Assembly: GCA_001823155.1 (NCBI GenBank)
Contig: MHTR01000023.1
Location: 1-40,893, forward strand
From: Candidatus Wildermuthbacteria bacterium RIFCSPHIGHO2_01_FULL_48_25
Lineage (GTDB): Bacteria > Patescibacteriota > Minisyncoccia > Minisyncoccales > UBA10102
Direction of reading: 5' to 3'
Length of the DNA: 40,893 nucleotides
Shown: positions 8,454 to 37,520 of the stretch, piece by piece
Numbering within the stretch: position 1 is the stretch's first letter
Layout: the number at the start of each line of letters is the position of its first letter
Program-made: the position numbers and the translations under genes
Notes under the pieces: generated by a model
What the model saw: the letters and a program-made list of their open reading frames with translations, nothing else
Databases searched by the model: none
Told to the model about the DNA's origin: nothing

Positions 8454-8597
8454 TTGGCACCTCCATGCCACTTATTTGGTTATGTACGGAAAATCTCCGA
8501 ACTAATACAATTATATACCCATTTGTACCTATTTGTCAAGATGGCAATTTAGAGCATAAAAAAGAGGGCTGGTTTTGACACCAACCCCCACCTGTGC

Positions 8598-9620
8598 CTA
8601 CTGTTGGATAAGTCCCGCAAGCACGGCGTTCTCCCGAGAGAGGAGATAAACTGTTCTCCCTGAAGGAGAAATGGAATGAATTATCCACTTTCCCTCAATG
8701 AGAACTGTGCTTGACTGCTGGGTTTCCGGCCAGTCGCCAATCACCTTGCCGTCGCCATTGAGATCTTGTAGGACCACAACGTCTCCAAGGTTCTTGAACA
8801 TCCCGTATCCGCTCCGTTCCTGGAGCGCGAAGAACCTATCGGTTTCCGAAATTCTTCCGACCCGCACACTCACCGTCTGAATGCCTACGCTCACCGCACT
8901 AACTGGTTGAGCCATCTCTGCGACGATGCGAAGGGCAGTCGGGATATCTCCCTCTTCCCCAAAATCAACGGCGTAGGAATTCACCTCGATTGCGTGGCTC
9001 TGCACAAGAGAATACGCGTACGCATCCGCCAGTGAACCGTTGAGCTCTCTGCCAACGTAGAGCGTCCCCGGGTTTTGGAAACCTTCTGGTAAAGGATCTA
9101 TGATGTCAGCCATTATGGCGAGCATGCCTCGAGATCCAACCCTGAAAACTCCGTAGTAACCAACACCCCTTGCCTGCGGAGCATCCTTCATCTCCAGGGG
9201 CTTCTCTCGCGCGAGTGTCTTTTCCTGCCCCGAGTAACCTCCAAGGATGTTGAGGTCTGCGATGTTGTCCCCCGATATATCAATCGTGGTTATGGCAACA
9301 AGAGGCAACGGGGTAGAAGTAGGCGTTGGCGAAGAGACAGACGCGGCAGTCACTTCTACGGTTGGCACCTGCGTAGGTGCCGAAACCACGGTTGCTCCAA
9401 CAGCGGTCTCTGTTGGCTGCGCCAGGGCTGTACCCGTTGGAACGAACACCGGCGTTGCCGTCGGCTGCGTCAACACTCCAGCTGTCGACGAAACTACAGG
9501 CGTAGAATCAACAGTTGAAACCGGCTTATCGCCACCACTCCGCATCACGAGAAAAGCTACTCCCACTGCTACGAACGCAACGAACACTCCGGTCAAAACC
9601 ATTAACGCTTTACGGCTCAT
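8598..9620 (-). CDS. Membrane-anchored protein with Thr/Pro-rich linker
   Basis: GGAGG SD before ATG 9620 (MSRKALMV); TM helix, TP-rich stalk, C-terminal DLNGDG motif. Confidence 0.75.
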   Translation of the reverse strand: MSRKALMVLTGVFVAFVAVGVAFLVMRSGGDKPVSTVDSTPVVSSTAGVLTQPTATPVFVPTGTALAQPTETAVGATVVSAPTQVPTVEVTAASVSSPTPTSTPLPLVAITTIDISGDNIADLNILGGYSGQEKTLAREKPLEMKDAPQARGVGYYGVFRVGSRGMLAIMADIIDPLPEGFQNPGTLYVGRELNGSLADAYAYSLVQSHAIEVNSYAVDFGEEGDIPTALRIVAEMAQPVSAVSVGIQTVSVRVGRISETDRFFALQERSGYGMFKNLGDVVVLQDLNGDGKVIGDWPETQQSSTVLIEGKWIIHSISPSGRTVYLLSRENAVLAGLIQQ

Positions 9621-9748
9621 GGGTATCCCTCCCCAATACTGAACCTCGCCAGAACATATAACCCGAGATCCGCCATCCACCAACTGGCAGAGCAGACTTC
9701 TCGTAACTACCTCCAGCGAACCATAAATAAAGTCACCTGTCAATTCCA

Positions 9749-9767
9749 AACTAGGGTTACCCTAATT
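9749..9767. repeat. Intergenic 19-bp palindrome singlet
   Basis: aactagggttaccctaatt between divergent accessory genes; half copy at 9783. Confidence 0.75.
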
Positions 9768-9840
9768 TGGATAATTTGGCGAAACTAGGGTATAGTGTGC
9801 GAAGGGTACAAAAGCACATTACACAAAGAAAGGACAGGCG

Positions 9841-10998
9841 ATGACGACGCTACTGGTCACTGGAGCAACAGGCACTGTTGGCCAAATCGTCGTGCGCCTT
9901 CTCCTTGAGAGAGGACACGACGTTATCGCACTTGTGCGGGGAAAAAATGGAGAAAACGCGCAGGAACGCATGAGGAAAATCGTTCCTGGCGCGGAACGCC
10001 TCACGGTTCTTGAGGGAGACATTTTGGAACCGTTCGCGGGAGTGCGCACCGGAGATATAGCGCAGCTCTACGGAAACGTTCACGGGCTCGTGCACAGCGC
10101 GGCAAGCATTAAGTTCATTGAAACCCCAGACAAACTCGTTCACCGAACGAATGTTGAGGGCACCAAGAACGCGCTGAATCTTGCTTCGGCTCTGCGCATT
10201 CCTGCGATCTGTTACGTAGGCACGGCGTACGCCAACGGAAACAAATCGTTCTGCCTCGAAGACGCAGTGCCGGTTGACCCGCTCATTCAGCGAAACGCCT
10301 ATGAACTTTCGAAGGCACTGGCTGAAAAGCTCGTGCGAGAGTCGGGGATCCCATTCTCCATTCTGCGTCCCGCTATTGTCACGGGTGATTACCACACTGG
10401 ATTCACCCCTGAAGTCAATAGCGGATACGGAGGATGGTTCGAGGTCTTGTTCCGCCATGGTAAAGCGATTCAAAAAGAGTGGAAACAGGACCCCCAAAAG
10501 CTTCTGGGGTCGGGAATTCACGTTGACTCGCAGGGAGTCATTACCCTTCCCATTACCATCAGTGCCACCAAGGTGGGACCACTCCACTTGGTGCCACGCG
10601 ATTGGGTGGGAAGCACGCTAGTCGGATTGATTGAGAGCCCAGTACAGAACATGACGTTCCACCTCACGCATCCGAATCCGCCAAGCGTAAAGTTTGTCAT
10701 TGAACAATCCCTGGAACATCTGGGAATACGCGGTTTCAAAATTGGGTCAAGTGACCATGCGCCATCGGGCCGCGCTGGCGCAATTCAAAGAGTCATACAA
10801 GGACAATTGGCGCAGTTTAACCCCTACACGCGCCAGGACGTTCAAAAGTTTTCGAACTCCAACACCAGAGAAGTGCTGGGACCAAGGTGGGTGGCACCGC
10901 CTCCCATTACTCCCGACTATTTCGCGCGACTTCTCGATTACGCAATTTCCCAAAACTTCGGGCGAGAACGGGAACTTGTGAGCACAGGCAGAACGTAA
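9841..10998 (+). CDS. Extended SDR / thioester-reductase-like NAD(P)-dependent oxidoreductase
   Basis: TGATGTVG Rossmann motif, HSAA, NVEGT, YELSK, LRPAIVTGD. Confidence 0.85.
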   Translation: MTTLLVTGATGTVGQIVVRLLLERGHDVIALVRGKNGENAQERMRKIVPGAERLTVLEGDILEPFAGVRTGDIAQLYGNVHGLVHSAASIKFIETPDKLVHRTNVEGTKNALNLASALRIPAICYVGTAYANGNKSFCLEDAVPVDPLIQRNAYELSKALAEKLVRESGIPFSILRPAIVTGDYHTGFTPEVNSGYGGWFEVLFRHGKAIQKEWKQDPQKLLGSGIHVDSQGVITLPITISATKVGPLHLVPRDWVGSTLVGLIESPVQNMTFHLTHPNPPSVKFVIEQSLEHLGIRGFKIGSSDHAPSGRAGAIQRVIQGQLAQFNPYTRQDVQKFSNSNTREVLGPRWVAPPPITPDYFARLLDYAISQNFGRERELVSTGRT

Positions 10999-11037
10999 GT
11001 TCTGCTTTTTTCTTTGCGGAACTGATATAATATCTGA

Positions 11038-12600
11038 ATGAACGTTTTTGCTCTTTCGGGCATTCTTATTGGAACCACGAGCACTGCCATGGCGGTTTTG
11101 ATGATCCTTATTGGAAAGGAAAAGCTCCACCACATTTGGGGCTTGTTTTGCACGGCTGTCGCGGTGTGGGGGTTTGGCGCCTACCAAATAGCAACCACGA
11201 GTAATATTGCGCAGGCAGAACTCTGGTGGAGAATAACGCACCTCGGAGTTATTTTCATCCCCATTCTGTTCATGCACTTTGTATCAGAGTTCTTAAAACT
11301 CAAAAACAAGCCCTTCATTGTTTCTCTCTATACCCTTGGCTTCTTGTTCTTAGCTCTCAACGCGAAAGGGGATCTCTTCATTGCCAGCATGCGCTGGGTG
11401 TTCAACCAGTTTTACTATGACTCGCCCCCAGGCATTTTCTACATTCCTTTCACTTTCTTTTTCATAGGGTTGGTCATCTTGAGCCATTATATTCTCTGGA
11501 GAGCATTGAGAACCGCAACGGGGTTGAAGAAAAAGCAGATCCAGTATTTTTTCGCGGGCATGCTCGTAAGTTTCGCAGGTGGCAGTTTGAGCTTCCTTCC
11601 TGTGTACGGAATAGATTTTTATCCCATATTCAACCTGTTTGCCTTTCTCTACACCCCTATTCTCACCTTTGCCATTTTGCGAAAACAGCTGTTTGACATA
11701 CGGCTTGTGTTAACCCAGTTCTTGGTAGGAGCCATTGCTATTCTTTTACTCTTCAACTTCTTCACCTCTTCTTCGTTCTTTGAATACGCGTGGAAAGGAA
11801 CTTTATTTGTGGCTTTCTTGCTCGCGGGATACTTACTTATCAAGAGCGTGCTTAATGAGATTCGAATACGTGAGCAATTGGAAGAGGCGCTCACAAAACT
11901 CAAAGAGCTCGACAAAGCAAAGTCTGAATTCCTTTCCATTGCTTCGCACCAACTGCGAGCGCCGTTAACTGCCATTAAAGGATACTTATCCATGCTCATG
12001 GAAGGAACGTATGGAACAGTGGGGGAACAACAAAAGAGGCCCATGCAGAACGTGTATGATTCAAACGAGCGCATGATAAAACTCGTCAACGACTTGTTGA
12101 ACATTTCGCGCATTGAATCAGGAAAGGTGGAGATGAAAATGGAAGAGGGGAGTGTTGAAAAAATTCTGGAGAGCGTGGTGCAGGAACTTCAGGTAAAGGC
12201 GCACGAAAAACGCTTGGACCTGGTATTCGAAAAACCACAAAGTCCTTTATCTCTTTTCCGCTTTGATAAAGAAAAGATGCGCAATGTGGTGCTGAATCTC
12301 GTGGATAACGCCATTCACTACACAGAGCAGGGCAGCGTAAAGGTACAAGCCAGACAAACCGCGCAAAACACGATTATCTCGGTTACGGACACAGGGCTTG
12401 GCATGCGAGAAGAAGAAATAGCGCGGTTGTTCCAGAGCTTTACCAGAGGTGAAACAGGGAACAGGGCATGGGCAGAGGGTTCGGGTTTGGGCCTCTATAT
12501 CGCGAAACAATTCGTTGCTTTGCACAGGGGGAGGATATGGGCGGAGAGCAAAGGACAAGGCAAAGGTTCAACCTTTTTTGTGGAATTGCCTCTGGCATAA
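11038..12600 (+). CDS. Sensor histidine kinase with multi-TM (HisKA_7TM-like) N-terminus
   Basis: ASHQLRAPL H-box, NLVDNAIHYT N-box, DTGLGM, GSGLGL, GKGSTF. Confidence 0.93.
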   Translation: MNVFALSGILIGTTSTAMAVLMILIGKEKLHHIWGLFCTAVAVWGFGAYQIATTSNIAQAELWWRITHLGVIFIPILFMHFVSEFLKLKNKPFIVSLYTLGFLFLALNAKGDLFIASMRWVFNQFYYDSPPGIFYIPFTFFFIGLVILSHYILWRALRTATGLKKKQIQYFFAGMLVSFAGGSLSFLPVYGIDFYPIFNLFAFLYTPILTFAILRKQLFDIRLVLTQFLVGAIAILLLFNFFTSSSFFEYAWKGTLFVAFLLAGYLLIKSVLNEIRIREQLEEALTKLKELDKAKSEFLSIASHQLRAPLTAIKGYLSMLMEGTYGTVGEQQKRPMQNVYDSNERMIKLVNDLLNISRIESGKVEMKMEEGSVEKILESVVQELQVKAHEKRLDLVFEKPQSPLSLFRFDKEKMRNVVLNLVDNAIHYTEQGSVKVQARQTAQNTIISVTDTGLGMREEEIARLFQSFTRGETGNRAWAEGSGLGLYIAKQFVALHRGRIWAESKGQGKGSTFFVELPLA

Positions 12601-12623
12601 CCTAATGATATACTGGCACAAGC

Positions 12624-14042
12624 ATGCAACGAACATTGAGCTCAGAAACGCTTTCCCAAGTTGGGAAAACCGTGAAACTCGCGGGCTGGATACAAACCCG
12701 CAGAGACCACGGCAAAATCATCTTTTTTGACCTTCGGGATTCTGGAGGTATTTTGCAGTTGGTATGCACGCCCCAGGAAAAGGAGGTATATGAGCTCGCG
12801 CAGACGTTGAGATCCGAGTGGGTGGTAGAGGTTGAGGGCGAAGTGAAAGAACGGCCAGACGCAATGAAGAACGCGGAGCTGGCTACCGGAAACGTTGAGG
12901 TAGGAGTGAAAAAGCTTGTGGTGCTCTCTGAAGCCAAAACTCCGCCCTTTCCTATTGATACTCCTGGATACGACATTGATGAGGAAACGCGGTTGAAATA
13001 CCGGTACCTGGATTTACGAAGACCCCGGCTCCAGAAAAACCTCAAACTGCGTTCCGAATATGTGAAAGCGGTGCGCGAATACCTTTTCAGCAAGGGATTT
13101 TTGGAAATTGAAACTCCGCTTTTAACCAAATCCACCCCCGAGGGTTCACGCGACTTTGTAGTTCCAAGCAGAGCACAGCCTGGAAAGTTCTACGCACTTC
13201 CTCAAAGCCCTCAGCAATACAAACAACTGCTCATGGTTGCCGGGTTTGAAAAGTATTTCCAGATAGCGCGGGCTTTGCGCGACGAAGACCCCAGAGCAGA
13301 CAGGGGATTTGAGCACAGCCAGGTAGACTTGGAAATGAGTTTTGTGGGAATGGAAGACGTCATGAACGTGGTGGAAGAGATGACCGTGTTCGCGGTGGAG
13401 AAAATCGGAGGGAACATAGCAAAAAAACCGTTCCCTGTGTTTACCTATGAAGAAGCAATGAAACAATTCGGGGCAGACAAGTTTGATTTGAGAACCGAAC
13501 AAGAAAAGAAAGAGGGGATACTGAGTTTTGCCTGGGTTGTGAGCTTTCCATTCTTTGAAAAAGACAAAACAGGCAAATGGACGTTCACGCACAACCCGTT
13601 TTCAGCTCCTTTGAACGAAGAACATGAAGCAATGCTTTTGAAAGGAAAGGATATTGAGAAAATCATAACTTCGCAGTATGACCTGGTGTGCAACGGTCTT
13701 GAGGTTGCAGGAGGAAGCTTGAGAACGCATAAGCCCAATGTGCTGAGAGCAGTGTTCAAAACAATGGGGTACAAAGAACAGGAGATCGAGGAACAGTTCG
13801 GGCACATGCTGGAAGCATTCTCACACGGCGCTCCTCCGCACGGCGGATGCGCGCAGGGATTTGAACGACTACTCATGGCATTCCTGGGAGAGGAGTATCT
13901 GAGAGAAGTACAGGCATTTCCCCAAACAGGCCAGGGAAGAACCTCTGTTATGGATGCACCAAGCGAACTGTCTGAAGCGCAATTGAAAGAACTCCACTTA
14001 AAGGTGCAAAACCCTTCGACTAAACTCAGGGCAGGGAAATGA
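12624..14042 (+). CDS. aspS: Aspartate--tRNA ligase (short form lacking GAD insertion domain)
   Basis: RRDHG, YRYLDLRR, LPQSPQQYKQLLM, RDEDPRADR, APPHGG. Confidence 0.96.
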   Translation: MQRTLSSETLSQVGKTVKLAGWIQTRRDHGKIIFFDLRDSGGILQLVCTPQEKEVYELAQTLRSEWVVEVEGEVKERPDAMKNAELATGNVEVGVKKLVVLSEAKTPPFPIDTPGYDIDEETRLKYRYLDLRRPRLQKNLKLRSEYVKAVREYLFSKGFLEIETPLLTKSTPEGSRDFVVPSRAQPGKFYALPQSPQQYKQLLMVAGFEKYFQIARALRDEDPRADRGFEHSQVDLEMSFVGMEDVMNVVEEMTVFAVEKIGGNIAKKPFPVFTYEEAMKQFGADKFDLRTEQEKKEGILSFAWVVSFPFFEKDKTGKWTFTHNPFSAPLNEEHEAMLLKGKDIEKIITSQYDLVCNGLEVAGGSLRTHKPNVLRAVFKTMGYKEQEIEEQFGHMLEAFSHGAPPHGGCAQGFERLLMAFLGEEYLREVQAFPQTGQGRTSVMDAPSELSEAQLKELHLKVQNPSTKLRAGK

Positions 14043-15025
14043 CAAAGAACACCTTCTACTTTTTCGCGGCGTTCCTCTTGAGTATGCCTTTGTTCATGGG
14101 CATGAATACTGTTTCAAGCACCATTGAAAACACCTACTTTTTAGCAGAACTCTCCAAAAACCCCGAGGTGCTGGCAGCAACAACCGCAAACGCAGTGCTC
14201 CAGAGCGCTTTTTTTGAGGAACAGCCGTTTCGCAACACGTCAGTTCCTTTAACTGAAGTTTCTGCAAAGGCGGCGTTCTCCTTGTTTGTCAACAAACAGG
14301 GGAATACGAATGTGCTCTTTGCCAAAAACCAGCACGAGGCCCTTCCCATTGCGAGCTTAACCAAGTTGATGACTGCTTTGGTTGTTGAAACGTATTATCC
14401 ACAAGAAGAAATAATCACCATAACCAAAGAAGCCATACAAAAAGAAGAAAACACAGGGAACTTCAATATTGGAGAGCAGTTTTTGGTAAAAGACTTGCTT
14501 CGCTCTCTTTTAGTTGAATCATCCAACGACGCCGCAGCTGCCTTTGCCCTGCAGTGGGGACGGGAAACCTTTTTGCACGCAATGAATGAAAAAGCGGAAC
14601 AGCTTTCACTCGAACACACCTCGTTCGTAGACGAAGCAGGGGTAGACCCCAACGAAGGAGAACTCATAAACCGCGCAACCGCAAAAGACCTGGCTGAACT
14701 TTCCCGCTTTGTCATGGAAAACCACCCTGAAGTGTTTTCACTCTTGAGTATGACGTCTGCCGAATTGAGAACAGCTGAGGGAAAACTGCACCACACCGTG
14801 AAAACAACCAATGATTTATTGATTTCGAATGGTTGGGAGACAAAGGTGCTGGGAGGAAAAACCGGCTGGACCCCCAAAGCAAATGGATGCCTGCTCTTGA
14901 TCCTAGAGTCACCCGACGGAAAAGGATACCTTGTAAACGTTATCCTGGGGGCCCAAGACAGGTTCGCCGAAATGAAAACCATGGTGAACTGGGTATTTGA
15001 CGCATACGAATGGAAACAACCATGA
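14039..15025 (+). CDS. D-alanyl-D-alanine carboxypeptidase (peptidase S11)
   Basis: SxxK (ASLTK), SxN (SSN), KTG motifs; N-terminal anchor. Confidence 0.92.
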   Translation: MTKNTFYFFAAFLLSMPLFMGMNTVSSTIENTYFLAELSKNPEVLAATTANAVLQSAFFEEQPFRNTSVPLTEVSAKAAFSLFVNKQGNTNVLFAKNQHEALPIASLTKLMTALVVETYYPQEEIITITKEAIQKEENTGNFNIGEQFLVKDLLRSLLVESSNDAAAAFALQWGRETFLHAMNEKAEQLSLEHTSFVDEAGVDPNEGELINRATAKDLAELSRFVMENHPEVFSLLSMTSAELRTAEGKLHHTVKTTNDLLISNGWETKVLGGKTGWTPKANGCLLLILESPDGKGYLVNVILGAQDRFAEMKTMVNWVFDAYEWKQP

Positions 15026-23552: not shown

Positions 23553-23596
23553 TTAAGATATAAAAGGTTCCGGAGTTGCACAATAAGCACTTCCCT

Positions 23597-24550
23597 ATGG
23601 AAAAATCAAAAAAGCCAATACTTGAACATATAGTTGATTTTCTTGATTACTGCGAAGTAGAACGCGGATTGTCCAGCAAAACTCAAGAGAATTATAATCA
23701 CTATCTCAAGAAGTTCTCTACCTGGCTCTCTTCCAAAAACCGCCAAGGCCTTCTTCCAGCTGACTTTACTGCCCAGGATGTCTGGGATTATAGGCTTTAC
23801 TTGTCTCGGCACCAGGATAAGGCTGGCAAAAGCCTGTCTAAGCTCACCCAGAACTACTATTTAATAGCCCTGCGAGCCCTTCTGGGCTACTTTGTAGCCA
23901 AAGACATAGTTTCACTGCCTCCAGAGAAAGTAACCCTGCCAAAGGACGCAGACAAGGAGAAAACCATCAAGTTCTTAAACCTAGAACAGATCCAGAAGCT
24001 TTTGGATGCACCAGATGCTACAAACCCCTCTGGACTACGGGATAAAGTGATCCTGGAAGCCTTGTTTTCCACTGGTTTGCGTATTGCAGAACTCATAGCA
24101 CTCAACAAGGAACAATTTGATTTCAGTTCAGATAAAAAGGACTTTGAGTTAAGTGTTATTGGTAAAGGTTCCAGAGCCAGAACCGTGTACTTTTCAGAAC
24201 GGGCTTTGGAATGGCTTAAAAAGTATCTCAATACGCGCAAAGACAAGCAAAAGGCTTTGTTTATCAACTACAGGGGCCGAACTAAGGAAGAAAACCGGCT
24301 CACAAGCCGTTCTATCGAAAGAATGATGAAGAAGTACTCAATCAAAGCCGGCATTCCCCTATTCACTACTCCTCATACCCTACGCCATTCATACGCAACT
24401 GATTTGCTTGAGCAAGGTGTAGACCTCCGCACCATTCAAGAATTCCTGGGTCACAAAAACATTGTGACCACCCAAATCTACACCCACGTCACCAACAAAC
24501 GCCTCCGAGATATTCATCGTCAATTCCACAGCGGCAAAAACCTTAAGTAA
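23597..24550 (+). CDS. Xer-family tyrosine recombinase
   Basis: N-terminal SAM-like domain (ERGLSSKTQENY); catalytic R (TGLRIAE), K (GKG), HTLRH, LGH, TTQIY; ATG 23597. Confidence 0.93.
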   Translation: MEKSKKPILEHIVDFLDYCEVERGLSSKTQENYNHYLKKFSTWLSSKNRQGLLPADFTAQDVWDYRLYLSRHQDKAGKSLSKLTQNYYLIALRALLGYFVAKDIVSLPPEKVTLPKDADKEKTIKFLNLEQIQKLLDAPDATNPSGLRDKVILEALFSTGLRIAELIALNKEQFDFSSDKKDFELSVIGKGSRARTVYFSERALEWLKKYLNTRKDKQKALFINYRGRTKEENRLTSRSIERMMKKYSIKAGIPLFTTPHTLRHSYATDLLEQGVDLRTIQEFLGHKNIVTTQIYTHVTNKRLRDIHRQFHSGKNLK

Positions 24551-27077: not shown

Positions 27078-27686
27078 CTACTGGGTCCATTGGTCGTTGA
27101 GCCCGAATCCGGGCGCTCCGACCTTGGACTGAAGCCCGTGGAAGCCGCCCACCGGGTCGTTGTACACCTCCTGGATGACCGTGTACTGACCCCAAAGCGG
27201 GCTACCCGGACCGGTCCAGACGATCTTCACGAAGTACGTGTAGTGGGCGTCCTGCGTTCCGTCGCCATCTGAGTCGTAGTCGCCCTCATTCTGGTTTGTG
27301 AGCCATCCCAGACTGATACCACCGACAACTCCGTCCACCAGACCACGGTCGAGTTTTCCGTCGCCGTCACAGTCAACGTTGGCTAGCCAGGCATCGCTCC
27401 ACTTCATGATCAGACTGTCGTCTGCGAAGTCGCTGGTGTCGTTCCCGATGACGCGGTCAAAGGCGTCGTAGGTGCCGACGAACAGATGAGCCTGGTAGTT
27501 GTACCCGTACTGGTCAAATCCAACCTGCACGGGATTGCCGGCGTTGTCGCTGATGGTGCCACCCTGAATAGTGGCGCATCCGACATTGGGCCCTCCTCTT
27601 GCGAGCACGCTGGGAGCTCCAAGGAGCCCCACTGTCAGAACAAGTGCCAGTATCAGAAACCAGAACCCGAAACGAAACTTCTTCAT
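27078..27686 (-). CDS. Secreted acidic protein with DxDGDG Ca-binding-like motifs
   Basis: Signal peptide, DCDGDG and DSDGDG, TTGACA-17-TAATAT promoter, own terminator. Confidence 0.8.
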   Translation of the reverse strand: MKKFRFGFWFLILALVLTVGLLGAPSVLARGGPNVGCATIQGGTISDNAGNPVQVGFDQYGYNYQAHLFVGTYDAFDRVIGNDTSDFADDSLIMKWSDAWLANVDCDGDGKLDRGLVDGVVGGISLGWLTNQNEGDYDSDGDGTQDAHYTYFVKIVWTGPGSPLWGQYTVIQEVYNDPVGGFHGLQSKVGAPGFGLNDQWTQ

Positions 27687-29308: not shown

Positions 29309-29328
29309 GGGACGAGGTTAGTCGTCCC
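29309..29328 (-). terminator. Terminator hairpin, identical to 29766-29785
   Basis: gggacgaggttagtcgtccc preceded by gcaaataaaa. Confidence 0.85.
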
Positions 29329-29732: not shown

Positions 29733-29785
29733 ACGAAATTGAAAAGAAAGTCAAGCAAATAAAATGGGACGAGGTTAGTCGTCCC
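29733..29785. repeat. Cassette-junction repeat copy 2 plus duplicated terminator
   Basis: acgaaattgaaaagaaagtcaagcaaataaaa then gggacgaggttagtcgtccc. Confidence 0.85.
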
Positions 29786-30278: not shown

Positions 30279-31970
30279 GTGTCGGTATCGCTCGTTCCCG
30301 TTGAATCGTTTTTTAGCCTCGCAAAAGCTGCAGAACTGTGGGATGAAACCACTCTCGGCAACAAGACCTTCCGCGAACAGATTACGGAGCGCGCAGAGCT
30401 GAACAGGCGCCTTCAAAACGTCCTGGACTCTCTGCCCCGGCCGGATATTCCTCTTGAAACCGCAATCGACCAAGGACACCTCACCGAAGAGCAGGCAGCA
30501 GGCCTGTACTCGTCCCTGAGCGGCTTACTGTCTGAACGTGACTACAGACGGCTTGTCTTGTACTTTCCTTTTGAGCTCATGCCAAAAAAGGCATGGCGTG
30601 CTCCAGGGGAAAAACTCAAGCAGGCTGTGGAACAATTCAGGCATGCGTATATGGAGGCATGGAAAAGCCTTCTCTCGGCGCATGACGTGCGCGCAAACTT
30701 TACCGATGGCGACGTGCTTGAGATAGAGTTGCGCGAAAGCGATCTGCCCCGCGTGGTAAAAGCTGCTCACCTCATTCCAGTACTCATTGAAAAAGGCTGG
30801 ATGACGGTTGAGGACGCAGAAAGACTCGCGAAAGAAATCAAAGACCAAACTTTGCGAGACAGCGTTGCTGACGCGCTTTCAGCTGTTCGGGGCACACTCA
30901 AACCAGAGCAGCCCGAAGCAGTAAAAAACACCGCGCCTATCACCGAAAAACGCGCGGCGTGGCTGAAAAAGCGTGAGCGCGAAGAGGCAGTTGATGCCTT
31001 GAGCGAACACGTAAGCAAACTGATTATCCAGGGCAAACGTGCGGACGCAAGCCAGGAAGTGCTGACTGAAGGAATCAGGAAAACGGTTGAGTCAATTGCC
31101 GCAGTCGACCTCGAAAAAGCGCGCGCGCTGTACGCGCAGCACAGGGCAACCCTGCTGAAGCTCTGGGAAAGCGATTCCTCTGACGTAAAGGATGCTCTCG
31201 TAAAGACTTTTCGCCGGTTCTGCCACCTCGGCATTGTCGACGAAAAACAACTTGCAGAACTCAACATCGCTCGCCCGAAGCTGGAAGGACCATTCTCCGA
31301 AAACCTGAACTTCATCACGAACCTGGTTGACATGCATGGGATGGTTTCGTCCATTGAATCAACGCGCGAACTATCCAACCTCATCTACCCCGTGGTTCTC
31401 GTGTATGGTTCCCGTCTGAATGGATACGGCACGCGGAACTCAGACATTGATGTCGCGGTGTTTGTGAGGCCAGGAACACCCTTTGTAATCCGACAAAGGC
31501 TGCAGGAACTCCTCGCGCGAACCTTCAGCCATGTGCTCATCCCAAACGTGGTTGAGTTCTGGCTCGAGGAAAGAAATGGATTGCTTAGGGTTCGGGATTT
31601 TGAAAGCCCTGACGTGTCGCTGGGAGAAAGCTACTGGACACACGCCCTGTTCGGAGCCGCGTGGATAGGGCCAAAGCCCGTCATACGCGAGCTCTGCCTA
31701 CGACTGCTGCTTCCCTACCTCTCTGACACAAGCGGCACGCTCCACAGACAGAACGCGCGAAGGCTGTATCTTGAGAGCCTTGAAAGCGCTTCCCTGCAGT
31801 ACCGGCTCATGCACAACGGGTACGAAAGATTCTTCGCCCGCTACGGCGCGCCGTACCCCGACAGCGTTGACGGCAAGAGCGCCTTCTGGGATTCAGGCTA
31901 CAGGTGGCTCGCGACAAAGCTCTTTTTGAGCAAGGTCTTTCTGCCCAAACTCCCTGCTCCCCTAATATAA
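30279..31970 (+). CDS. Large protein with C-terminal pol-beta-type nucleotidyltransferase domain
   Basis: VVLVYGSRLNGYGTRNSDIDVAVFV (GS..DxD), third acid in VVEFW; AAGGAGG SD; helical N-terminal two-thirds. Confidence 0.8.
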   Translation: MSVSLVPVESFFSLAKAAELWDETTLGNKTFREQITERAELNRRLQNVLDSLPRPDIPLETAIDQGHLTEEQAAGLYSSLSGLLSERDYRRLVLYFPFELMPKKAWRAPGEKLKQAVEQFRHAYMEAWKSLLSAHDVRANFTDGDVLEIELRESDLPRVVKAAHLIPVLIEKGWMTVEDAERLAKEIKDQTLRDSVADALSAVRGTLKPEQPEAVKNTAPITEKRAAWLKKREREEAVDALSEHVSKLIIQGKRADASQEVLTEGIRKTVESIAAVDLEKARALYAQHRATLLKLWESDSSDVKDALVKTFRRFCHLGIVDEKQLAELNIARPKLEGPFSENLNFITNLVDMHGMVSSIESTRELSNLIYPVVLVYGSRLNGYGTRNSDIDVAVFVRPGTPFVIRQRLQELLARTFSHVLIPNVVEFWLEERNGLLRVRDFESPDVSLGESYWTHALFGAAWIGPKPVIRELCLRLLLPYLSDTSGTLHRQNARRLYLESLESASLQYRLMHNGYERFFARYGAPYPDSVDGKSAFWDSGYRWLATKLFLSKVFLPKLPAPLI

Positions 31971-31972
31971 CG

Positions 31973-32041
31973 ACCGTTAGTTCCCAGCTAACGGTTTTTT
32001 GTTTAGAAATAAAAGGGGCCAAGCATTCGTATGCTTGGCCC
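31973..32041. terminator. Back-to-back terminators of convergent units
   Basis: accgttag/ctaacggt+T-tract (plus) and gggccaagcat/atgcttggccc+TTTTATTT (minus). Confidence 0.85.
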
Positions 32042-32068: not shown

Positions 32069-33205
32069 CTAGATGCGCCCCTTCCGATCGGCGCCAATGC
32101 CGCTTGGCATTCTGCCGCCTGCGTAGCTGTTGCTCAGCTGATCCCAGGGGATCTGGGAGCCGAGCATGTACAGGGCACCGAAGTACTGGAGCTCTTCGTT
32201 GCCCGCCGGCTGGTCCTTGACGCCCATGATAGAGAGGACGAAACGCGTCAGGTTGTTCTCGAGCCGTGGGTAGGTGGCTGAAACCGCCACTCCCAGCTGC
32301 TTGAGCATCTGCTCGCGATTCGCGGCGCCGATCATGCCGGGCAATCGAGGGTTCTCCAGAGCTTCCTTGACCTTGACTGCGTCGTAGGCGAGGGCGGCTG
32401 CGATCTGCACGCCGGTTCCCGCGAACACCCTATTGATGGCATCTGCGACTGCGTCAGCATGGTCGCGCAGCACTCCGGTTTCTGGCGGCGATATCATGCC
32501 CGGAGGTATGACGTTCCCGCCACCAGAGCTGGCCATGAGAACGCTCATCATCATGGCCGGATTCGCAGCACCCTGCATCCAGGCCGACTGCCACGAACGC
32601 AGCTGCTCAAAGAAGGCGGCGATCGCGGGCCAGAGATGTTCGTCAACTCGGCCGAGCAACTGCTTTCTCCTGGTCTCGGTCACGTAGTTGCCGTCGAAAC
32701 CCTCGAGGGCCTCGAAGATCTCGGCGTAGTTGCGGCGCGTCATGTCTCGGCGAAGCTTGAAGAACGCGGGGTCAACCTGTTCGTCGTTCTCGTCGGCGAA
32801 TCGTTCCATGGCCTTCACCAGAAGGTTAAGAACATCGAAGAGTCCCACGCGAGACGCAAGCGCCGCGCGAACCGCCGAGATGACACTCGACTGGTCAACC
32901 TTGAGAACACCTCCGGCCTTGAGCGCCTCGAGCCACGAGCTGTCGCTCGGAACTGCCGGAAGCACCGCATCGAACGAAACAGCCACTGCGGCTGTTTCGC
33001 TTGCGGGCCGGGCCGGCGCGAGTGCCGAGACCAACTTCCTTGCCGGCAGCTTTTTCATTCCAGCTGCAACAAGATCGTCCTCGGTCAAGCCGGCCAGATC
33101 TTCCACTGTCGAAGCGCCCAGGTCTGTTTTGATCTTTTCGATCACGTCAACCGGCACGCCTAGTTCCTCCAGCCTGCTCTTTACCTGGTCCGTATCTACT
33201 GCCAC
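32069..33205 (-). CDS. Hypothetical protein with N-terminal SAM-like domain
   Basis: LEELGV...VEDLAGLTEDDLVAAGMKKLPARKLVSAL resembles a SAM domain; GGAG SD; last gene of operon. Confidence 0.75.
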   Translation of the reverse strand: MAVDTDQVKSRLEELGVPVDVIEKIKTDLGASTVEDLAGLTEDDLVAAGMKKLPARKLVSALAPARPASETAAVAVSFDAVLPAVPSDSSWLEALKAGGVLKVDQSSVISAVRAALASRVGLFDVLNLLVKAMERFADENDEQVDPAFFKLRRDMTRRNYAEIFEALEGFDGNYVTETRRKQLLGRVDEHLWPAIAAFFEQLRSWQSAWMQGAANPAMMMSVLMASSGGGNVIPPGMISPPETGVLRDHADAVADAINRVFAGTGVQIAAALAYDAVKVKEALENPRLPGMIGAANREQMLKQLGVAVSATYPRLENNLTRFVLSIMGVKDQPAGNEELQYFGALYMLGSQIPWDQLSNSYAGGRMPSGIGADRKGRI

Positions 33206-33220: not shown

Positions 33221-34606
33221 TTACCTGCACACCTTGTCTTGCTCGGTTGGTCCGAATGAAACCATTCGGACTGGCACTCCCAATGCTCCATTGAGAACGT
33301 TTGCGCAGAGCGAGTATAGCTCGTCGCGCCCGGCCTCAGACGGAATCTCGAGAGTGGTGACTATGGGCTTAGAAGCCAAAACCTGCTTACCCAAACGTTC
33401 CTGGTACTCGAGGTGCTCTTCGTCTTCTCCTCCTTTGACGTTCAGCGCTCCCTTCTCTGTGAAGTACTCGGGATTCTCGGCGTTCGCGTAGCGATCGCAA
33501 AGATCCCACCTTTTATTGGCCATGATCTGGTCGAACCAGGTAACAGCCAACCCGTTGAAGGCCTCTGAACCTCCGCAGGCCTCTATGGCGTAGCGGAGCA
33601 GAACAAGATCAAGGGGGCCAACGCGCACTTTTCCTTGGTACCGGTTCTCTTCTTTGTGGCTGCCAGGCAGCAGGCTTTCGGCCATAGCTGCGTCTGCAGT
33701 TGGAAGAGGCCCGGCACCGTGGCGAATGGCGTAGGCCCGGAACACACCGATGCTCACCGTTTCTTCGCCATATCCAGCCTCTCTGAGCATTGCTTTTGCA
33801 AAGCGCGGCAGCGTTCGGATTGCGCTGGTATGGGGGTGGAAACCGCGGTAGCGATCCGTGAGCACCCCATGCGAGCTTTCGACCACGACCACGCCGTCTC
33901 GAGAAAGGATCTCTCGCTCGAGATACTCGCGGTCAACGATCGTAGCTTGCCGGGATACTTCTTTGAATTGCTCCGCGCAGTAGCTCAGGAAGTCGTCGTC
34001 GTACAGACGGCCGACTTCCAGTTTTACCTGGTGAAGGTCATGAGGAAGAAACTCAGGGATCATGCTTGTGGTGTCGCGCCGCACCTGTTCTCGAATTGCA
34101 ACAAGCCGGTCTCTGATATCGAGCCGCGAAAGGTCGCGAACCCGAATCGTCAAACCTGGGTGCCGCTCCGAATAGCGATACGCCTCACCTACTCCTGTGC
34201 CGATCGTACCGCGGGGGTTCTTGCCCCGCGCCATTTCTTTGAGGCGCGAAGCAATCCCGTGGTACGGCGTGGCACAGAGCACGTCCCTGTCTACCGTGAG
34301 CATGCTGAAGGGATCGTGAATCCCGTGTTCGTACCGAAGCGCGCTGGCTTCGTTCAGCAAACCCACAGGGGAAGCCACCATGCGAGGAGAAAGATACGTC
34401 CTTACTCCTTCGAATGTGCCACAGCCCCATTGGCTGAATGCAAAGCGTTCACCCCTTGAGGTGCAAACGCCGTGGCTTCCCTGAGCTCCTCCGACCTTCA
34501 CAACGGTGTGGGCACGCATCATTGTTGTGATTTTGTGCACCACACCGCCTTTGCCGCCGTCACCCGGACCAAGATCGGTGACGGTGTATACTTTTTTCAC
34601 CGCCAC
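33221..34606 (-). CDS. Divergent adenylosuccinate synthetase (PurA-fold) protein
   Basis: DLGPGDGGKG, GGAQGSHG, GTIGTGVGEAY, VESSHGVLTD, RAYAIRHGAGPLPT, RVGPLD, LAVTWFD, VSFGP colinear with PurA motifs. Confidence 0.88.
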   Translation of the reverse strand: MAVKKVYTVTDLGPGDGGKGGVVHKITTMMRAHTVVKVGGAQGSHGVCTSRGERFAFSQWGCGTFEGVRTYLSPRMVASPVGLLNEASALRYEHGIHDPFSMLTVDRDVLCATPYHGIASRLKEMARGKNPRGTIGTGVGEAYRYSERHPGLTIRVRDLSRLDIRDRLVAIREQVRRDTTSMIPEFLPHDLHQVKLEVGRLYDDDFLSYCAEQFKEVSRQATIVDREYLEREILSRDGVVVVESSHGVLTDRYRGFHPHTSAIRTLPRFAKAMLREAGYGEETVSIGVFRAYAIRHGAGPLPTADAAMAESLLPGSHKEENRYQGKVRVGPLDLVLLRYAIEACGGSEAFNGLAVTWFDQIMANKRWDLCDRYANAENPEYFTEKGALNVKGGEDEEHLEYQERLGKQVLASKPIVTTLEIPSEAGRDELYSLCANVLNGALGVPVRMVSFGPTEQDKVCR

Positions 34607-34620
34607 CTCTCATCTCCTTC

Positions 34621-35742
34621 CTAGAGCCACTTGGGCCCTTCGGGGTCGCCGCTTTCTTCCGAAGGCGCGCCCTCTGAATCGACTTCGCTCGGGTCGATCG
34701 GCCAGACATCGGTCTTTTCCCTGAACAGATCACCCTTTTGCGGCCGCTTGCCAAAGTTGGGCAGAGCTGCCTGGGCGCCTATGGGGATGTTGGCGACAGA
34801 ACGCACGATCCTTTTCGCGTCGTCCCTTTCAACGTTGTTTTCCTGGAGGAACTCCTCAACACTGCTAAGGTCGAGAGTTCCTTCGGTAAGGCCGATGATC
34901 GCAGCCTGCACCTGGGGCAGAAGCTCTGTGCTTGGCAGAACGACCACGCGCTCTGCGCCGAACACTCCTGTCCAGAACCGCGTTGTACTCGGGGCGTCTC
35001 CGACCTGCAGGAAAAAGGCGTGCGCCCGTTTCAGCAGGTCCTGGACAACCTCCATCGTACTCGGCAGGTCACGGGAATCCACCTTGTGGCCGTTCTCGGC
35101 CACTTTTTCGAACACCTCGGGACCGAAAATGCGGCGGAGCTGACTCTCGTCGAGCCAATCGCGGCCCGGCGCGTCCGACACCGTAAAGTCGTACCCCTTG
35201 AGGTCGATCCGAACGATGTACACAGCAGTCAAGAAAGCAGCGCCGAACAATCCATAATGCGGATCTTCGGGCGCATCGCCGCCTGCCCGTTCGGGAACCA
35301 TGAGCGTAAGCTGTTCAACGATTTTTTCGGCCACCATCTCGAACTGCGGCCGGCACAGAACGAACCTGTCTCCTACGTCGCCAAAGATCCCGATCGCGCT
35401 CTGAAGATCGTAGCCAGGCAGCACGCCGCTGCACAGCTCGTAGTCTTTCGGCAGAACGCGAAGGGCAATGTCAACATTGCCACCCATGCTGCCGGTTGTG
35501 TCCACGCGAACTTCTTTTGGTATTGGCGTGCCAACCGTGAGAACCCAGAGGCCGTCTGCTCGCTTTTCGAGTCGCGGCAGCGATCGGCGGATCACGCCGT
35601 AGCCTGCCGGATCGACAAGCGGATTCAACGTGCCAGTTTCACGGGCTACTTGCTCTGCCCGGAACGTCGCGGGGCCACTCTTTGGTACGAATGTTTCAGC
35701 TGCCAGCGAGTAGGCTTCGCGCGAGAACGTTCTCTTTCCCAT
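34621..35742 (-). CDS. vWA-domain protein
   Basis: MIDAS-like VDTTGSM, IFGD, GGDAPED, VSDAP. Confidence 0.8.
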   Translation of the reverse strand: MGKRTFSREAYSLAAETFVPKSGPATFRAEQVARETGTLNPLVDPAGYGVIRRSLPRLEKRADGLWVLTVGTPIPKEVRVDTTGSMGGNVDIALRVLPKDYELCSGVLPGYDLQSAIGIFGDVGDRFVLCRPQFEMVAEKIVEQLTLMVPERAGGDAPEDPHYGLFGAAFLTAVYIVRIDLKGYDFTVSDAPGRDWLDESQLRRIFGPEVFEKVAENGHKVDSRDLPSTMEVVQDLLKRAHAFFLQVGDAPSTTRFWTGVFGAERVVVLPSTELLPQVQAAIIGLTEGTLDLSSVEEFLQENNVERDDAKRIVRSVANIPIGAQAALPNFGKRPQKGDLFREKTDVWPIDPSEVDSEGAPSEESGDPEGPKWL

Positions 35743-35744
35743 GG

Positions 35745-36572
35745 TCAGTTCTCCTCTTCATTCCTCAACGGTTTAGTGGTGAATGGATGGTACTTGCGCT
35801 CCCAGAGCGCATCGACCAATGCGTAGAACTCCTTGTGTGCTTGTTCTGCGTCTCGCATGCCTCCTCGTGCCAGATGTAGGACGAAATCGGTATACGCCTT
35901 GGTGCTGTTGTCTGGGAATGTGCCTGTTTCCAGTTCACCTCCCAGCACGACAACAACCGCTTGGGCGGCTTTTGAGATCTGCAAACTCTGCGTTTCTCTT
36001 GGGACCGCTTCGGGAAATACCTGCGCTGTTGACCAATCGAAGATCAGCACATAGTGCAGCTTCGGCTCGATCAAGACGTTGTTCCCGGTCGCTTCAATGG
36101 AGAATCCCTCACTGAACGCAAATACGAGCAGTTTGAGAAGTTTCCCCATGATCCACGCGCTGGTGCGCTCGTCAACACGAAGCCTGTCTTTGGCCGTGAT
36201 GTTGCTCAATGGCACCATGCTCCTCACATCCCCTACGTTCCTAAACGCAAGGATGTTGATGTGCCGCGCTCCCTGTTCTTGGGAAACGAAGCTGTCTACA
36301 AGTTCGGGAAACCCGAGCTTGTAGTTAAGCATGGCTTCGGGATCCTTCTTCACACGCGCGTACTCTTCTTCAAGCTCATCAGCATAGCGCTCAAGCTCTT
36401 TTAGAACGTAGGCTGTGCGCTGAAGACCGCCGTTGTTAGCTGTCGCAAGCGCAATCTGCAAAAGGCACTGACTCCCTGCTTCGTCGCGGCAGAGGTAGAG
36501 CCGGTAGGTACCGGTCTCTGCCACCTGCTTGCCGACTTGGTATAGGTGAAAATCGTTCCGTATTTCTATCAC
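35745..36572 (-). CDS. Protein-kinase-fold protein, probably catalytically degenerate
   Basis: YQVGKQVAETGTYRLY, CLLQIA, FPELVDSF, NNVLI, LIFDWS; GGAGG SD before GTG 36572. Confidence 0.7.
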   Translation of the reverse strand: MIEIRNDFHLYQVGKQVAETGTYRLYLCRDEAGSQCLLQIALATANNGGLQRTAYVLKELERYADELEEEYARVKKDPEAMLNYKLGFPELVDSFVSQEQGARHINILAFRNVGDVRSMVPLSNITAKDRLRVDERTSAWIMGKLLKLLVFAFSEGFSIEATGNNVLIEPKLHYVLIFDWSTAQVFPEAVPRETQSLQISKAAQAVVVVLGGELETGTFPDNSTKAYTDFVLHLARGGMRDAEQAHKEFYALVDALWERKYHPFTTKPLRNEEEN

Positions 36573-36725
36573 GAAATTCCCCTCCGCTTGACTCTTTTCC
36601 AGATATCTATTGTCAAGGTTCAGCAGCAAAACCCTACCAGTTTTGTATTAAATTGTCAAGGTTCGCCCGGGCTTCAAAGAAGTCCAGGCGGCTAACTCCC
36701 GGTCAGACGTCCGAACTCCTTTAGA

Positions 36726-37406
36726 TCAAAGAAATTGAAAGAACTCTGTTTGCCTTTTCGCAAACTTGTGGAGTGCCGCAGGCCTGTTTGCCCCTCCCCT
36801 CTTTTCTCCTCCAGTAGGCCGTACCAGGTTGAGCGCGAAAAGCTTCTTCCGGAAGTTGCGCTTGTCAAACTTCTTTCGCAGCACAACTTCGTAAACTTCT
36901 TGCAGTTCGCCTAAGGTAAATTGGGGCTTCAAGAATCCTTGGGCTATAGTGGAATACCCAAGCTTTGCCTCAAGACGCTCCAAGCCCTTTTTCACGATTT
37001 CGTTGTGATCGTATGCAAGGTTGAGAAGGCGTTTTGCATCTTTCCAGTATACTTTTCTCGCATTGAGGCTTTTGGAAATTGCTTCTGGAGAAACTAACAC
37101 AAGATATGCCACAGATACCACCCTGCCTCTTGGGTCGCGATTGACCGAACTGAACGTGTACAACTGCTCGATATAGGAAGGGACAACGCCTGTCTTGCCT
37201 TTTAAATGGCGGCGAACCGACGCATCGGCGGTTTCATGGGGGCGTATCAAACCGCCAGGCACGCCGAGCATATGCTTATAAAAAGGTGGTATATGCACAT
37301 CGATCAAAAGAACCTTGAGAATTTTTTCGTGAATAGTAAAAATGACCACGTCGGTGGCTAAGACCGCGAAGTGGAGTTCTTTGGTACTTGGCTTCTTTCG
37401 TTTCAT
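36726..37406 (-). CDS. NrtR-family regulator (Nudix-like plus winged HTH)
   Basis: ATDVVIFT, PGG, EQLYTF..RDPRGRVVSVAY, LAYDH, FTLGELQEVYE, DKRNFRKK, RPAAL; Nudix box degenerate. Confidence 0.92.
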   Translation of the reverse strand: MKRKKPSTKELHFAVLATDVVIFTIHEKILKVLLIDVHIPPFYKHMLGVPGGLIRPHETADASVRRHLKGKTGVVPSYIEQLYTFSSVNRDPRGRVVSVAYLVLVSPEAISKSLNARKVYWKDAKRLLNLAYDHNEIVKKGLERLEAKLGYSTIAQGFLKPQFTLGELQEVYEVVLRKKFDKRNFRKKLFALNLVRPTGGEKRGGANRPAALHKFAKRQTEFFQFL

Positions 37407-37411
37407 TATAC

Positions 37412-37433
37412 TTAGTGTATAACTATACACGAA
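37412..37433. promoter_or_regulatory. Candidate NrtR operator (autoregulatory)
   Basis: TTAGTGTATA-AC-TATACACGAA palindrome overlapping TTGACA-18-TACACT promoter of the NrtR gene. Confidence 0.65.
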
Positions 37434-37520
37434 GTGCTGTCAAGAGCTGAAGAAATAAAAGCGGGCGGGGAATGGTGGTAAACCATCCCAGCCCGTTTGT
37501 TTGCTGGCCGAATCCGTTGT

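Follow-up and report, generated by a model that had tools for sequence, protein, structure and literature searches.

The window, by which we mean the whole stretch of DNA analyzed (40,893 nucleotides; contig MHTR01000023.1 of Candidatus Wildermuthbacteria bacterium RIFCSPHIGHO2_01_FULL_48_25), encodes on its minus strand a protein related to adenylosuccinate synthetase (PurA), hereafter the PurA-like enzyme. In minus-strand order, the genes around it encode an NrtR-like regulator, a kinase-fold protein, a vWA-fold protein, the PurA-like enzyme itself and an HhH/helical protein, followed by a terminator-like hairpin; the gene of a Pol-beta-type nucleotidyltransferase is convergent with this operon. 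The open reading frame (ORF) of main interest was as follows:

33221..34606, minus strand: PurA-like enzyme, 461 amino acids, GTG start

Motifs, fold, and clade of the PurA-like enzyme

Pfam family PF00709 matched residues 15-456 of the PurA-like enzyme (E 5.4e-35), which was 25% identical to Escherichia coli PurA. The scores against the NCBIfam purA equivalogs were 83.2 bits with a cut-off of 402 (NF002223) and 77.4 bits with a cut-off of 395.55 (TIGR00184), that is, below both. The AlphaFold model had a mean predicted local distance difference test score (pLDDT) of 82 and a predicted template modeling score (pTM) of 0.85. Its top Foldseek matches were all PurA structures, with query-based template modeling scores (TMq) of 0.67-0.70, and the TMq to the PurZ/DgsS structures 7ODX and 6TNH was about 0.5. 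The structural comparison proposed in an earlier reading of the window, made from the letters alone (the sequence-only reading), has therefore been run; the enzyme has the full PurA fold and is closer to long PurAs than to PurZ/DgsS.

Residues were compared with E. coli PurA by HMMER against chains of the Protein Data Bank (PDB) and by MAFFT against the K-12 gene. All five motif changes listed in the sequence-only reading were present where it had put them: GDEGKGK of PurA was replaced by GDGGKGG (residues 15-21), NAGHT by QGSHG (residues 42-46), EGAQG by ESSHG (residues 243-247), the GATTGRRRR loop by ENRYQGKV-R (residues 320-328), and TKLD by TWFD (residues 356-359). The five strings did not vary among 20 aligned homologues of 61-79% identity and are therefore selected family traits rather than chance changes. 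The catalytic Asp and His were kept, as that reading had held (D16 = E. coli D13, H45 = H41); the P-loop Lys (K19 = E. coli K16) and the RxGxGP segment were also retained.

We take T300, T301, and R305 to be residues of the aspartate loop of E. coli PurA. In the PurA-like enzyme, T300/T301/R303 became Y323/Q324/K326 and one Arg was lost, the R305 position being a one-residue deletion, so that the supposed loss of the aspartate-binding loop was confirmed. R303 is given as an aspartate-loop residue in PMC8342488. The pocket for inosine monophosphate (IMP) was also altered: the alignment gave N38Q, T129I, R131T, R143H, Q224H, and V273H (E. coli numbering). Presumably N38, T129, R143, Q224, and V273 contact IMP in the E. 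coli enzyme, T129 and R143 holding its free 5'-phosphate. At the contact positions, the PurA-like enzyme has Q42, I135, H149, H246, and H296, and only T128 and T239 are kept (T134 and S261).

The alignment check of TTGR and TKxD suggested by the sequence-only reading gave a divided answer: TTGR is replaced, while the Asp of TKxD is kept and its Lys is a Trp. The GTP-specificity motif, described there as lost, is thus changed at K331, but the guanine-specifying Asp (D359 = D333) remains, together with S450 and G452 (= S414 and G416). We assume that D333 of TKLD and S414-x-G416 are the guanine determinants of E. coli PurA. With this Asp and the C-terminal S-x-G still in place, the enzyme probably continues to use GTP. 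The non-GTP donor considered earlier is disfavored, because both determinants are conserved across the clade described below and PurZ, a user of ATP/dATP, lacks that Asp. Judging from these residues, the amine is different from that of PurA, the acceptor is probably different, and the donor is probably still GTP. The proposal that a different amine is ligated to a nucleotide agrees with the missing aspartate loop, but its acceptor part may be wrong, because the acceptor pocket is remodeled as well. Taken as a whole, the sequence-only reading recognized a repurposed PurA-fold enzyme, was probably wrong about the donor, and missed both the acceptor pocket and the gene context.

In a maximum-likelihood tree of 37 sequences, the window protein grouped with 13 others in a clade with 100/100 support (branch of 2.06), namely, ten core relatives, the proteins of genomes G311 and G086, and a protein of mycobacteriophage Sebata. 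All canonical PurAs (21 from the same phylum and that of E. coli) were outside this clade. PurZ of phage phiVC8 also fell outside, alone on a very long branch on which its placement is unreliable. The phylogeny that had been called for thus puts the PurA-like enzyme in a clade separate from PurA and PurZ. A family-profile search of an even sample of 401 genomes of the phylum matched 26, of which five matched strongly: the own genome, G015, G389, and the more distant G311 and G086. In the remaining 21, the matches were ordinary PurAs, 34-49% identical to E. coli PurA. Among 1.84 billion representatives at 50% identity, the profile retrieved 1,778 at E <= 1e-30; among the best 150 of these, 137 were full-length, and RHG was found in 134 and TTG[RK] in one of the 137. 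Judged by tree and motifs, PurA-like enzymes are a large uncharacterized sister clade of PurA.

Conservation was analyzed in an alignment of 140 members (50 core, including the window protein, 17 distant, and 73 from viral contigs), leaving out ORFs shorter than 350 amino acids and loci for which a simple ORF caller gave no complete gene. The catalytic Asp was found in 136/140 (core 47/50 with three gaps, distant 16/17, viral 73/73), the P-loop Lys in 137/140 (core 47/50, distant 17/17, viral 73/73), the catalytic His in 139/140 (core 49/50, distant 17/17, viral 73/73), and the D333 equivalent in 139/140 (core 50/50, distant 16/17, viral 73/73). At the former substrate positions, V273 was His in all 140 members, T300 was aromatic in 134, and T301 was Gln in 132 (core 46/50, distant 16/17, viral 70/73). 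The residues of the chemistry are conserved and new ones have become fixed in the former substrate loops, a combination that speaks for a new reaction and against a dead scaffold.

Each of the five carrier genomes, the own genome included, had a single PF00709 gene. Adenylosuccinate lyase (purB, TIGR00928) was not found in the own genome (82.5% complete) or in any of the four other carriers (98-100% complete); TIGR00928 was detected in all 14 of the reference genomes searched in the same way as a control. We failed to find a published description of the clade or of the gene module in a literature search that left subscription journals and supplements outside; what turned up was limited to genome announcements with a "PurA-like" gene in their lists (PMC9476963).

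Gene set, predicted complex, fusions, and phage relatives

The genes and terminators accompanying the PurA-like enzyme were the following:

34621..35742, minus strand: vWA-fold protein, 373 amino acids, with a MIDAS-like D81-x-T83-x-S85, an acidic tail, and a C-terminal Trp-Leu
35745..36629, minus strand: kinase-fold protein, true start probably GTG at 36572
32069..33205, minus strand: HhH/helical protein, 378 amino acids (HhH/SAM-like domain at the N terminus, then a linker, then a helical domain at the C terminus)
30279..31970, plus strand: Pol-beta-type nucleotidyltransferase, 563 amino acids, with PF01909 and PF18765 at residues 372-407
32016..32041, minus strand: terminator-like hairpin after the last operon gene, an 11-pair stem, 7 of the pairs GC, with a T-rich tail
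31972..31996, plus strand: terminator-like hairpin after the nucleotidyltransferase gene, an 11-pair stem followed by TTTTGTTT

A total of 86 loci were collected (80 from metagenomes, 5 from genomes, and the window). A complete PurA-like ORF was present in 68, and neighbors were counted on 67 of them, without the window, using only loci with enough flanking DNA; core loci were those with at least 43% identity. ORF calling was crude, so some missing neighbors may be technical. Core loci contained the vWA gene in 30/35 cases, the kinase-like gene in 29/32, the HhH gene in 27/29, and the nucleotidyltransferase gene in 25/25. In distant loci, the vWA gene was found in 10/14, the kinase-like gene in 4/13, and the nucleotidyltransferase gene in 7/11. 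No module protein was matched by PADLOC; thus, the module is not a catalogued defense system. The GC content at third codon positions (GC3) of the module genes was 0.61-0.74 versus 0.42-0.57 for most other genes of the window, which, together with the rarity of the module in the phylum sample, fits its lateral spread.

The vWA-fold protein had no Pfam match. Its model (pLDDT 83) resembled integrin beta I-like and NorD VWA domains (Foldseek E 1e-6). Of 18 rows in the family alignment, 15 had the terminal Trp-Leu, located behind a variable acidic linker; it was lacking in L036 and L037, the two most distant relatives, and in L003, where the end is Trp-Ala. The kinase-fold protein matched PHROG 3043 "kinase" (E 2e-7), and its homologues align from residue 30 onwards only. 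In the alignment it has a Gln at the position of the VAIK Lys and lacks the HRD Asp; the window protein is therefore probably catalytically dead, that is, a pseudokinase. More distant kinase versions retain the catalytic residues (L036) or have an N-terminal J domain with an HPD motif (L037, Sebata). A 13-nucleotide direct repeat GAACCTTGACAAT precedes the probable start of the kinase-like gene, with copies at 36652-36664 and 36609-36621 (minus strand), each containing TTGACA. The HhH protein gave a SAM_TNK match of E 0.0016, below the Pfam cut-off, and had neither a significant PDB sequence match nor a usable match in the protein atlas; the PDB sequence search for the nucleotidyltransferase also gave nothing significant.

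The two distant genome loci have further neighbors. In L036 (G311, 7693-14411), the order is vWA, PurA-like, a J-domain and apparently active kinase, a second vWA, a pyruvate-kinase-barrel-like gene, and a class-I glutamine amidotransferase; the pyruvate-kinase-barrel/HpcH-like neighbor recurs in six metagenome loci. In L037 (G086, 11378-13896), genes of the phosphoribulokinase/uridine-kinase family and of the Nudix type stand beside the kinase, vWA, and PurA-like genes.

The modeled complex of the PurA-like enzyme with the vWA protein had an interface score (ipSAE) of 0.72 versus 0.00 for the best of three controls; among 157 solved complexes, 116 reached that mark, as did 2 among 215 mismatched pairs, counts that apply only roughly here because own alignments were used. 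Contacts agreed between runs by at least 92%, and the partner pLDDT was at least 88. In the best-defined contacts, the last two residues of the vWA protein, W372 and L373, are placed in a pocket of the enzyme that is lined by residues 26-31, 284, 351-352, 447, and 460. In addition, vWA residues 41-60 are placed against enzyme residues 88-98, with the MIDAS residues outside the predicted interface. The model and conservation agree, because the docked W372/L373 are the independently conserved Trp-Leu.

Natural fusions were found among the relatives. Two separate 50%-identity representatives, P0269 (1,129 amino acids) and P0317 (1,102 amino acids), join the PurA-like domain end to end with a nucleotidyltransferase homologue of full length (E 6e-47 and 1e-54, respectively). 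They are not read-through of the arrangement seen in the window, where the two genes converge. P0241 (859 amino acids) joins the PurA-like domain with the HhH protein (49% identity, E 1e-115); it comes from one contig and could be read-through. The occurrence of these fusions elsewhere suggests a functional coupling of the enzyme with both the nucleotidyltransferase and the HhH protein. The modeled docking of the vWA protein and the natural fusions are new results of this analysis. One more representative, P0292 (700 amino acids), has a C-terminal extension of about 230 amino acids, which matches no module protein and no Pfam family.

When 50,697 phage records were searched by tblastn, 210 matched, with about 34% identity over 99% of the PurA-like protein; Mycobacterium phages accounted for 201. 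In phage Sebata, the order is a Ser/Thr kinase (gp260), a 340-amino-acid protein (gp261), an 88-amino-acid ORF, and the PurA-like gene, and this kinase-vWA-PurA-like triad is located near a polynucleotide kinase gene. The Sebata PurA-like protein matched the window enzyme with E 1e-58 and gp260 matched the window kinase-fold protein with BLASTP E 4e-11; gp261 was assigned to the vWA family by hhalign (probability 99.8%, E 2.6e-28), its plain BLASTP match (E 0.88) not being significant.

IMG/VR contained 211 stretches with relatives. The best 80 loci were examined, and in 73 of them the ORF was complete; RHG was present in 73/73 and TTGR in 0/73. A vWA-like gene was nearby in 58 and a kinase-like gene in 52 of these 73 loci, mostly directly upstream, and many of the viral loci are on contigs of 100-500 kb. 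The HhH protein was matched in 3/80 and the nucleotidyltransferase in 2/80 loci, and both adjoin the PurA-like gene only in L121 and L131. Therefore, the three-gene kinase-vWA-PurA-like core is mainly a module of large phages, and the five-gene form is the version of ultrasmall bacteria; the core itself looks phage-borne. The most frequent unassigned neighbor in the viral loci, a cluster from 16 of them, was excluded as a diverged vWA protein by hhalign (probability 0.1%) and may be a spurious antisense ORF.

The NrtR-like regulator and the link to NAD

Upstream of the module on the minus strand, the following features were identified:

36726..37430, minus strand: NrtR-like regulator (Nudix domain and winged helix), true start probably ATG at 37406
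37410..37435: 26-bp palindrome, candidate NrtR operator, core GTGTATA-AC-TATACAC, arms 92% complementary, overlapping the nrtR promoter
37414..37443, minus strand: sigma-70-like promoter TTGACA-18-TACACT, 10/12 in a consensus scan, a pattern match only

The regulator adjoins the module and matched NrtR_WHD (E 1e-18) and NUDIX (E 1.7e-6); its score with NCBIfam NF050029 was 124 bits, below the cut-off of 400 bits. The palindrome is just upstream of the likely nrtR start and was the sole match in the window as well as the sole exact match in the 0.51-Mb assembly. Copies of its core with one mismatch occur elsewhere in the genome (G000 C13:19010-19023 and C21:26971-26983). The terminator scan revealed no strong terminator between nrtR and the operon, which makes their co-transcription plausible; the nrtR promoter probably drives the module in this genome.

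PMC2330246 describes NrtR operators with a GT-N7-AC core, from which ADP-ribose releases NrtR. Candidate sites of the form GTGTATAnTATACAC, which fit this core, were found among relatives: with at most two mismatches, L035, L048, L055, and L057 have them ahead of the kinase-like gene at a distance of 117-208 bp, and they also occur upstream of the nucleotidyltransferase gene in L057 and of nrtR in L083. The search for GTGTATAnTATACAC gave 18 hits in 864 kb, representing 17 distinct sites, one of which was scored at two spacings. NrtR-like and NAMPT-like genes were each present in seven viral loci, among the commonest other neighbors. Occasional neighbors were NAMPT in L003, NAPRTase in three metagenome loci, and Nudix genes in L035 and L037. 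The position of the module at the nrtR promoter and the salvage genes of nicotinamide adenine dinucleotide (NAD) near some relatives suggest a role in nucleotide metabolism linked to NAD or ADP-ribose.

Weighing the possible functions

In the explanation that we favor, and whose probability we estimate at about 0.6, the product of the ORF is an active enzyme of PurA fold that depends on GTP, makes something other than adenylosuccinate, is partnered with the vWA protein, and is coupled to the nucleotidyltransferase and the HhH protein. Judging from the residues, the clade has kept the machinery of phosphoryl transfer (P-loop Lys, catalytic Asp and His, Mg/GTP site, and guanine-specifying Asp), has replaced the contacts to the 5'-phosphate and base of IMP, and has an aromatic-Gln-Gly loop in place of the aspartate loop. 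By analogy with PurA, the gamma-phosphate of GTP would be transferred to an oxygen of an acceptor other than IMP, and a nitrogen nucleophile other than aspartate would displace the phosphate. The enzyme would hold the vWA protein via its C-terminal Trp-Leu peptide, leaving the metal site of the vWA protein free for a further ligand. The module would move between large phages and ultrasmall bacteria and, in this genome, would stand under an ADP-ribose-sensing regulator.

Several observations weigh against this explanation or parts of it. The loop of residues 295-327, which holds the substituted motif, has pLDDT below 50 in the AlphaFold model, so that its geometry is not readable, and the complex with the vWA protein is a modeled one. 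The core family is rare in the phylum, with 3 carriers among the 401 genomes (the own genome included) and 2 distant members. The label "pseudokinase" fails for the clade as a whole, because the L036 kinase keeps its catalytic residues. Other points concern the regulation and the link to NAD. No NrtR-type palindrome was found directly upstream of the kinase-like gene of the window, and the palindrome at nrtR is GT-N8-AC, with a 2-nucleotide center and thus one extra central base, instead of GT-N7-AC. The NrtR-like gene was nearby in 7/20 core loci, 1/9 distant loci, and 7 viral loci, which makes for a partial link to NAD; a gene of the NAPRTase family was absent from phage Sebata and from all five carrier genomes. 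Furthermore, the NrtR family also regulates pathways other than those of NAD, according to PMC2330246.

A more specific version, which we regard as speculative and rather improbable, would make the enzyme and the nucleotidyltransferase a fourth route for rebuilding NAD+ or a related dinucleotide from breakdown products, induced by ADP-ribose via NrtR and carried by jumbo phages against NAD-depleting immunity of the host. In such a route, GTP would phosphorylate an oxygen of an acceptor of the ADP-ribose or pyridine-nucleotide type, and the nitrogen of nicotinamide or NH3, held by the aromatic-Gln loop, would displace the phosphate. The candidate function of replacing NadE was unsupported: a true NadE is encoded in one of the five carriers, but a supplier of its substrate from the NAPRTase family is encoded in none.

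The same residues and neighbors could be understood in other ways. The enzyme might modify a macromolecule, with the metal site of the vWA protein, the HhH domain and, in other variants, the J-domain kinase recruiting a protein or nucleic acid on which GTP would activate a carbonyl oxygen of a base or side chain for coupling to an amine. The loss of T129 and R143, which presumably hold the 5'-phosphate of IMP, would fit this, as would the nature of the partners as interaction modules (the vWA fold, HhH, and the J-domain HPD motifs of the L037 and Sebata kinases), the position of the MIDAS face outside the modeled interface, and the polynucleotide kinase gene near the Sebata triad. Our analyses, however, point to no target, most phage versions do without the HhH protein and the nucleotidyltransferase (matched in 3/80 and 2/80 viral loci), and the NrtR and NAMPT links point to the metabolism of small molecules; we consider such a function possible but unlikely. 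PurA belongs to a P-loop class that also includes GTPase switches, both substrate pockets are remodeled, and the partners look regulatory, so that a GTP-binding switch or scaffold, regulating the vWA and kinase partners without ligase chemistry, might also be imagined. We find this distinctly doubtful, since the Asp base (136/140) and the His acid (139/140) are kept although mere GTP binding has no need of them, and the newly invariant residues along the old substrate loops (V273 as His in 140/140, aromatic and Gln residues at T300/T301) fit a new substrate better.

Public sources name the relatives "adenylosuccinate synthetase", and the ORF is the only PF00709 gene of its genome; a genuine, merely divergent synthetase could serve the supply of adenosine monophosphate in a reduced genome. 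This is very improbable in view of a score of 83 bits against the cut-off of 402, the replaced aspartate loop and IMP contacts, the lack of purB in all five genomes, the placement of canonical PurAs of the same phylum (34-49% identical to that of E. coli) in another clade, and the location of the gene in a non-purine module common to phages. A related label, "2-aminooxy adenylosuccinate synthetase", comes from the best PHROG match (phrog_1211, 155.8 bits) and is borne by the RefSeq mycobacteriophage records; it would make the protein an enzyme of PurZ type, producing the 2-aminoadenine precursor of a Z-genome. That assignment is hardly tenable: phiVC8 PurZ is outside the clade on its own long branch, PurZ/DgsS structures fit worse (TMq about 0.5) than long PurAs, and no MazG-like or HD-type dATPase was found among the 30 window ORFs scanned with Pfam. 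PurZ, moreover, keeps aspartate as its amine and uses ATP/dATP (PMC8342488), while the aspartate loop is gone here.

The favored PurA-fold enzyme with changed substrates can be compared with several known systems. With PurA (EC 6.3.4.4; 1ADE, 1CG1) it shares the full-length fold, the catalytic Asp, His, and Lys, and the guanine determinants, and by analogy the chemistry is probably the same, namely, GTP-driven phosphorylation of an oxygen followed by displacement by an amine. It differs from PurA in lacking the aspartate loop and the IMP contacts, in the absence of the lyase from the genome, and in having a vWA partner. PurZ/DgsS (6FM1, 7ODX) is likewise a phage-carried enzyme of the PurA superfamily acting on a new substrate, but phiVC8 PurZ is short (343 versus 461 amino acids), has no D333 equivalent in the alignment where the PurA-like enzyme has D359, and works with DatZ and MazZ instead of a vWA protein and a kinase. 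The TerY-P triad consists of the vWA protein TerY, a Ser/Thr kinase, and a PP2C phosphatase. The module resembles it in that the vWA gene adjoins the gene of a eukaryote-type kinase fold; it differs in that no PP2C domain was found in the window by the Pfam scan, the PurA-like enzyme taking the third place, and in that the window kinase lacks the catalytic Lys and the HRD Asp. The pathways NARP1-3 are also phage-borne modules of nucleotide metabolism, and some relatives of the module adjoin NAMPT-like and NrtR-like genes; however, Adps, Namat, NAMPT with NMNAT, and PnuC with NadR are all absent from the five conserved genes. In a word search of the text of two NARP papers (bioRxiv 10.1101/2024.02.11.579819; PMC13464706), adenylosuccinate, PurA, and vWA did not appear.

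The chemistry of PurA was long thought to serve one reaction, until PurZ showed that it can be retargeted. With this clade, the PurA fold would have been retargeted a third time and on a much larger scale, its 1,778 clusters (50% identity) coming from ultrasmall bacteria and from phages as large as about 0.5 Mb; both substrates appear changed in it, and a vWA protein appears as the partner. The database label "adenylosuccinate synthetase" wrongly credits purine-salvage capacity to genomes without the rest of the pathway. The predicted docking peptide, the Rosetta-stone fusions, the candidate operator, and the cultivable mycobacteriophages with the three-gene core offer experimental handles.

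Some further features were observed in the window around the module. A tyrosine recombinase (Phage_integrase, E 2.8e-43) was encoded at 23576-24550, between a block of cell-wall and aminoacyl-tRNA synthetase genes and the accessory region that includes the module. An ORF of 202 amino acids at 27078-27686, without a Pfam match, had a GC3 of 0.73, second among the scored ORFs to the HhH gene of the module (0.74). Two identical 20-nucleotide hairpins GGGACGAGGTTAGTCGTCCC, located 457 bp apart at 29309-29328 and 29766-29785 between the MgsA-like and nucleotidyltransferase genes, both scored as terminator-like on the minus strand.

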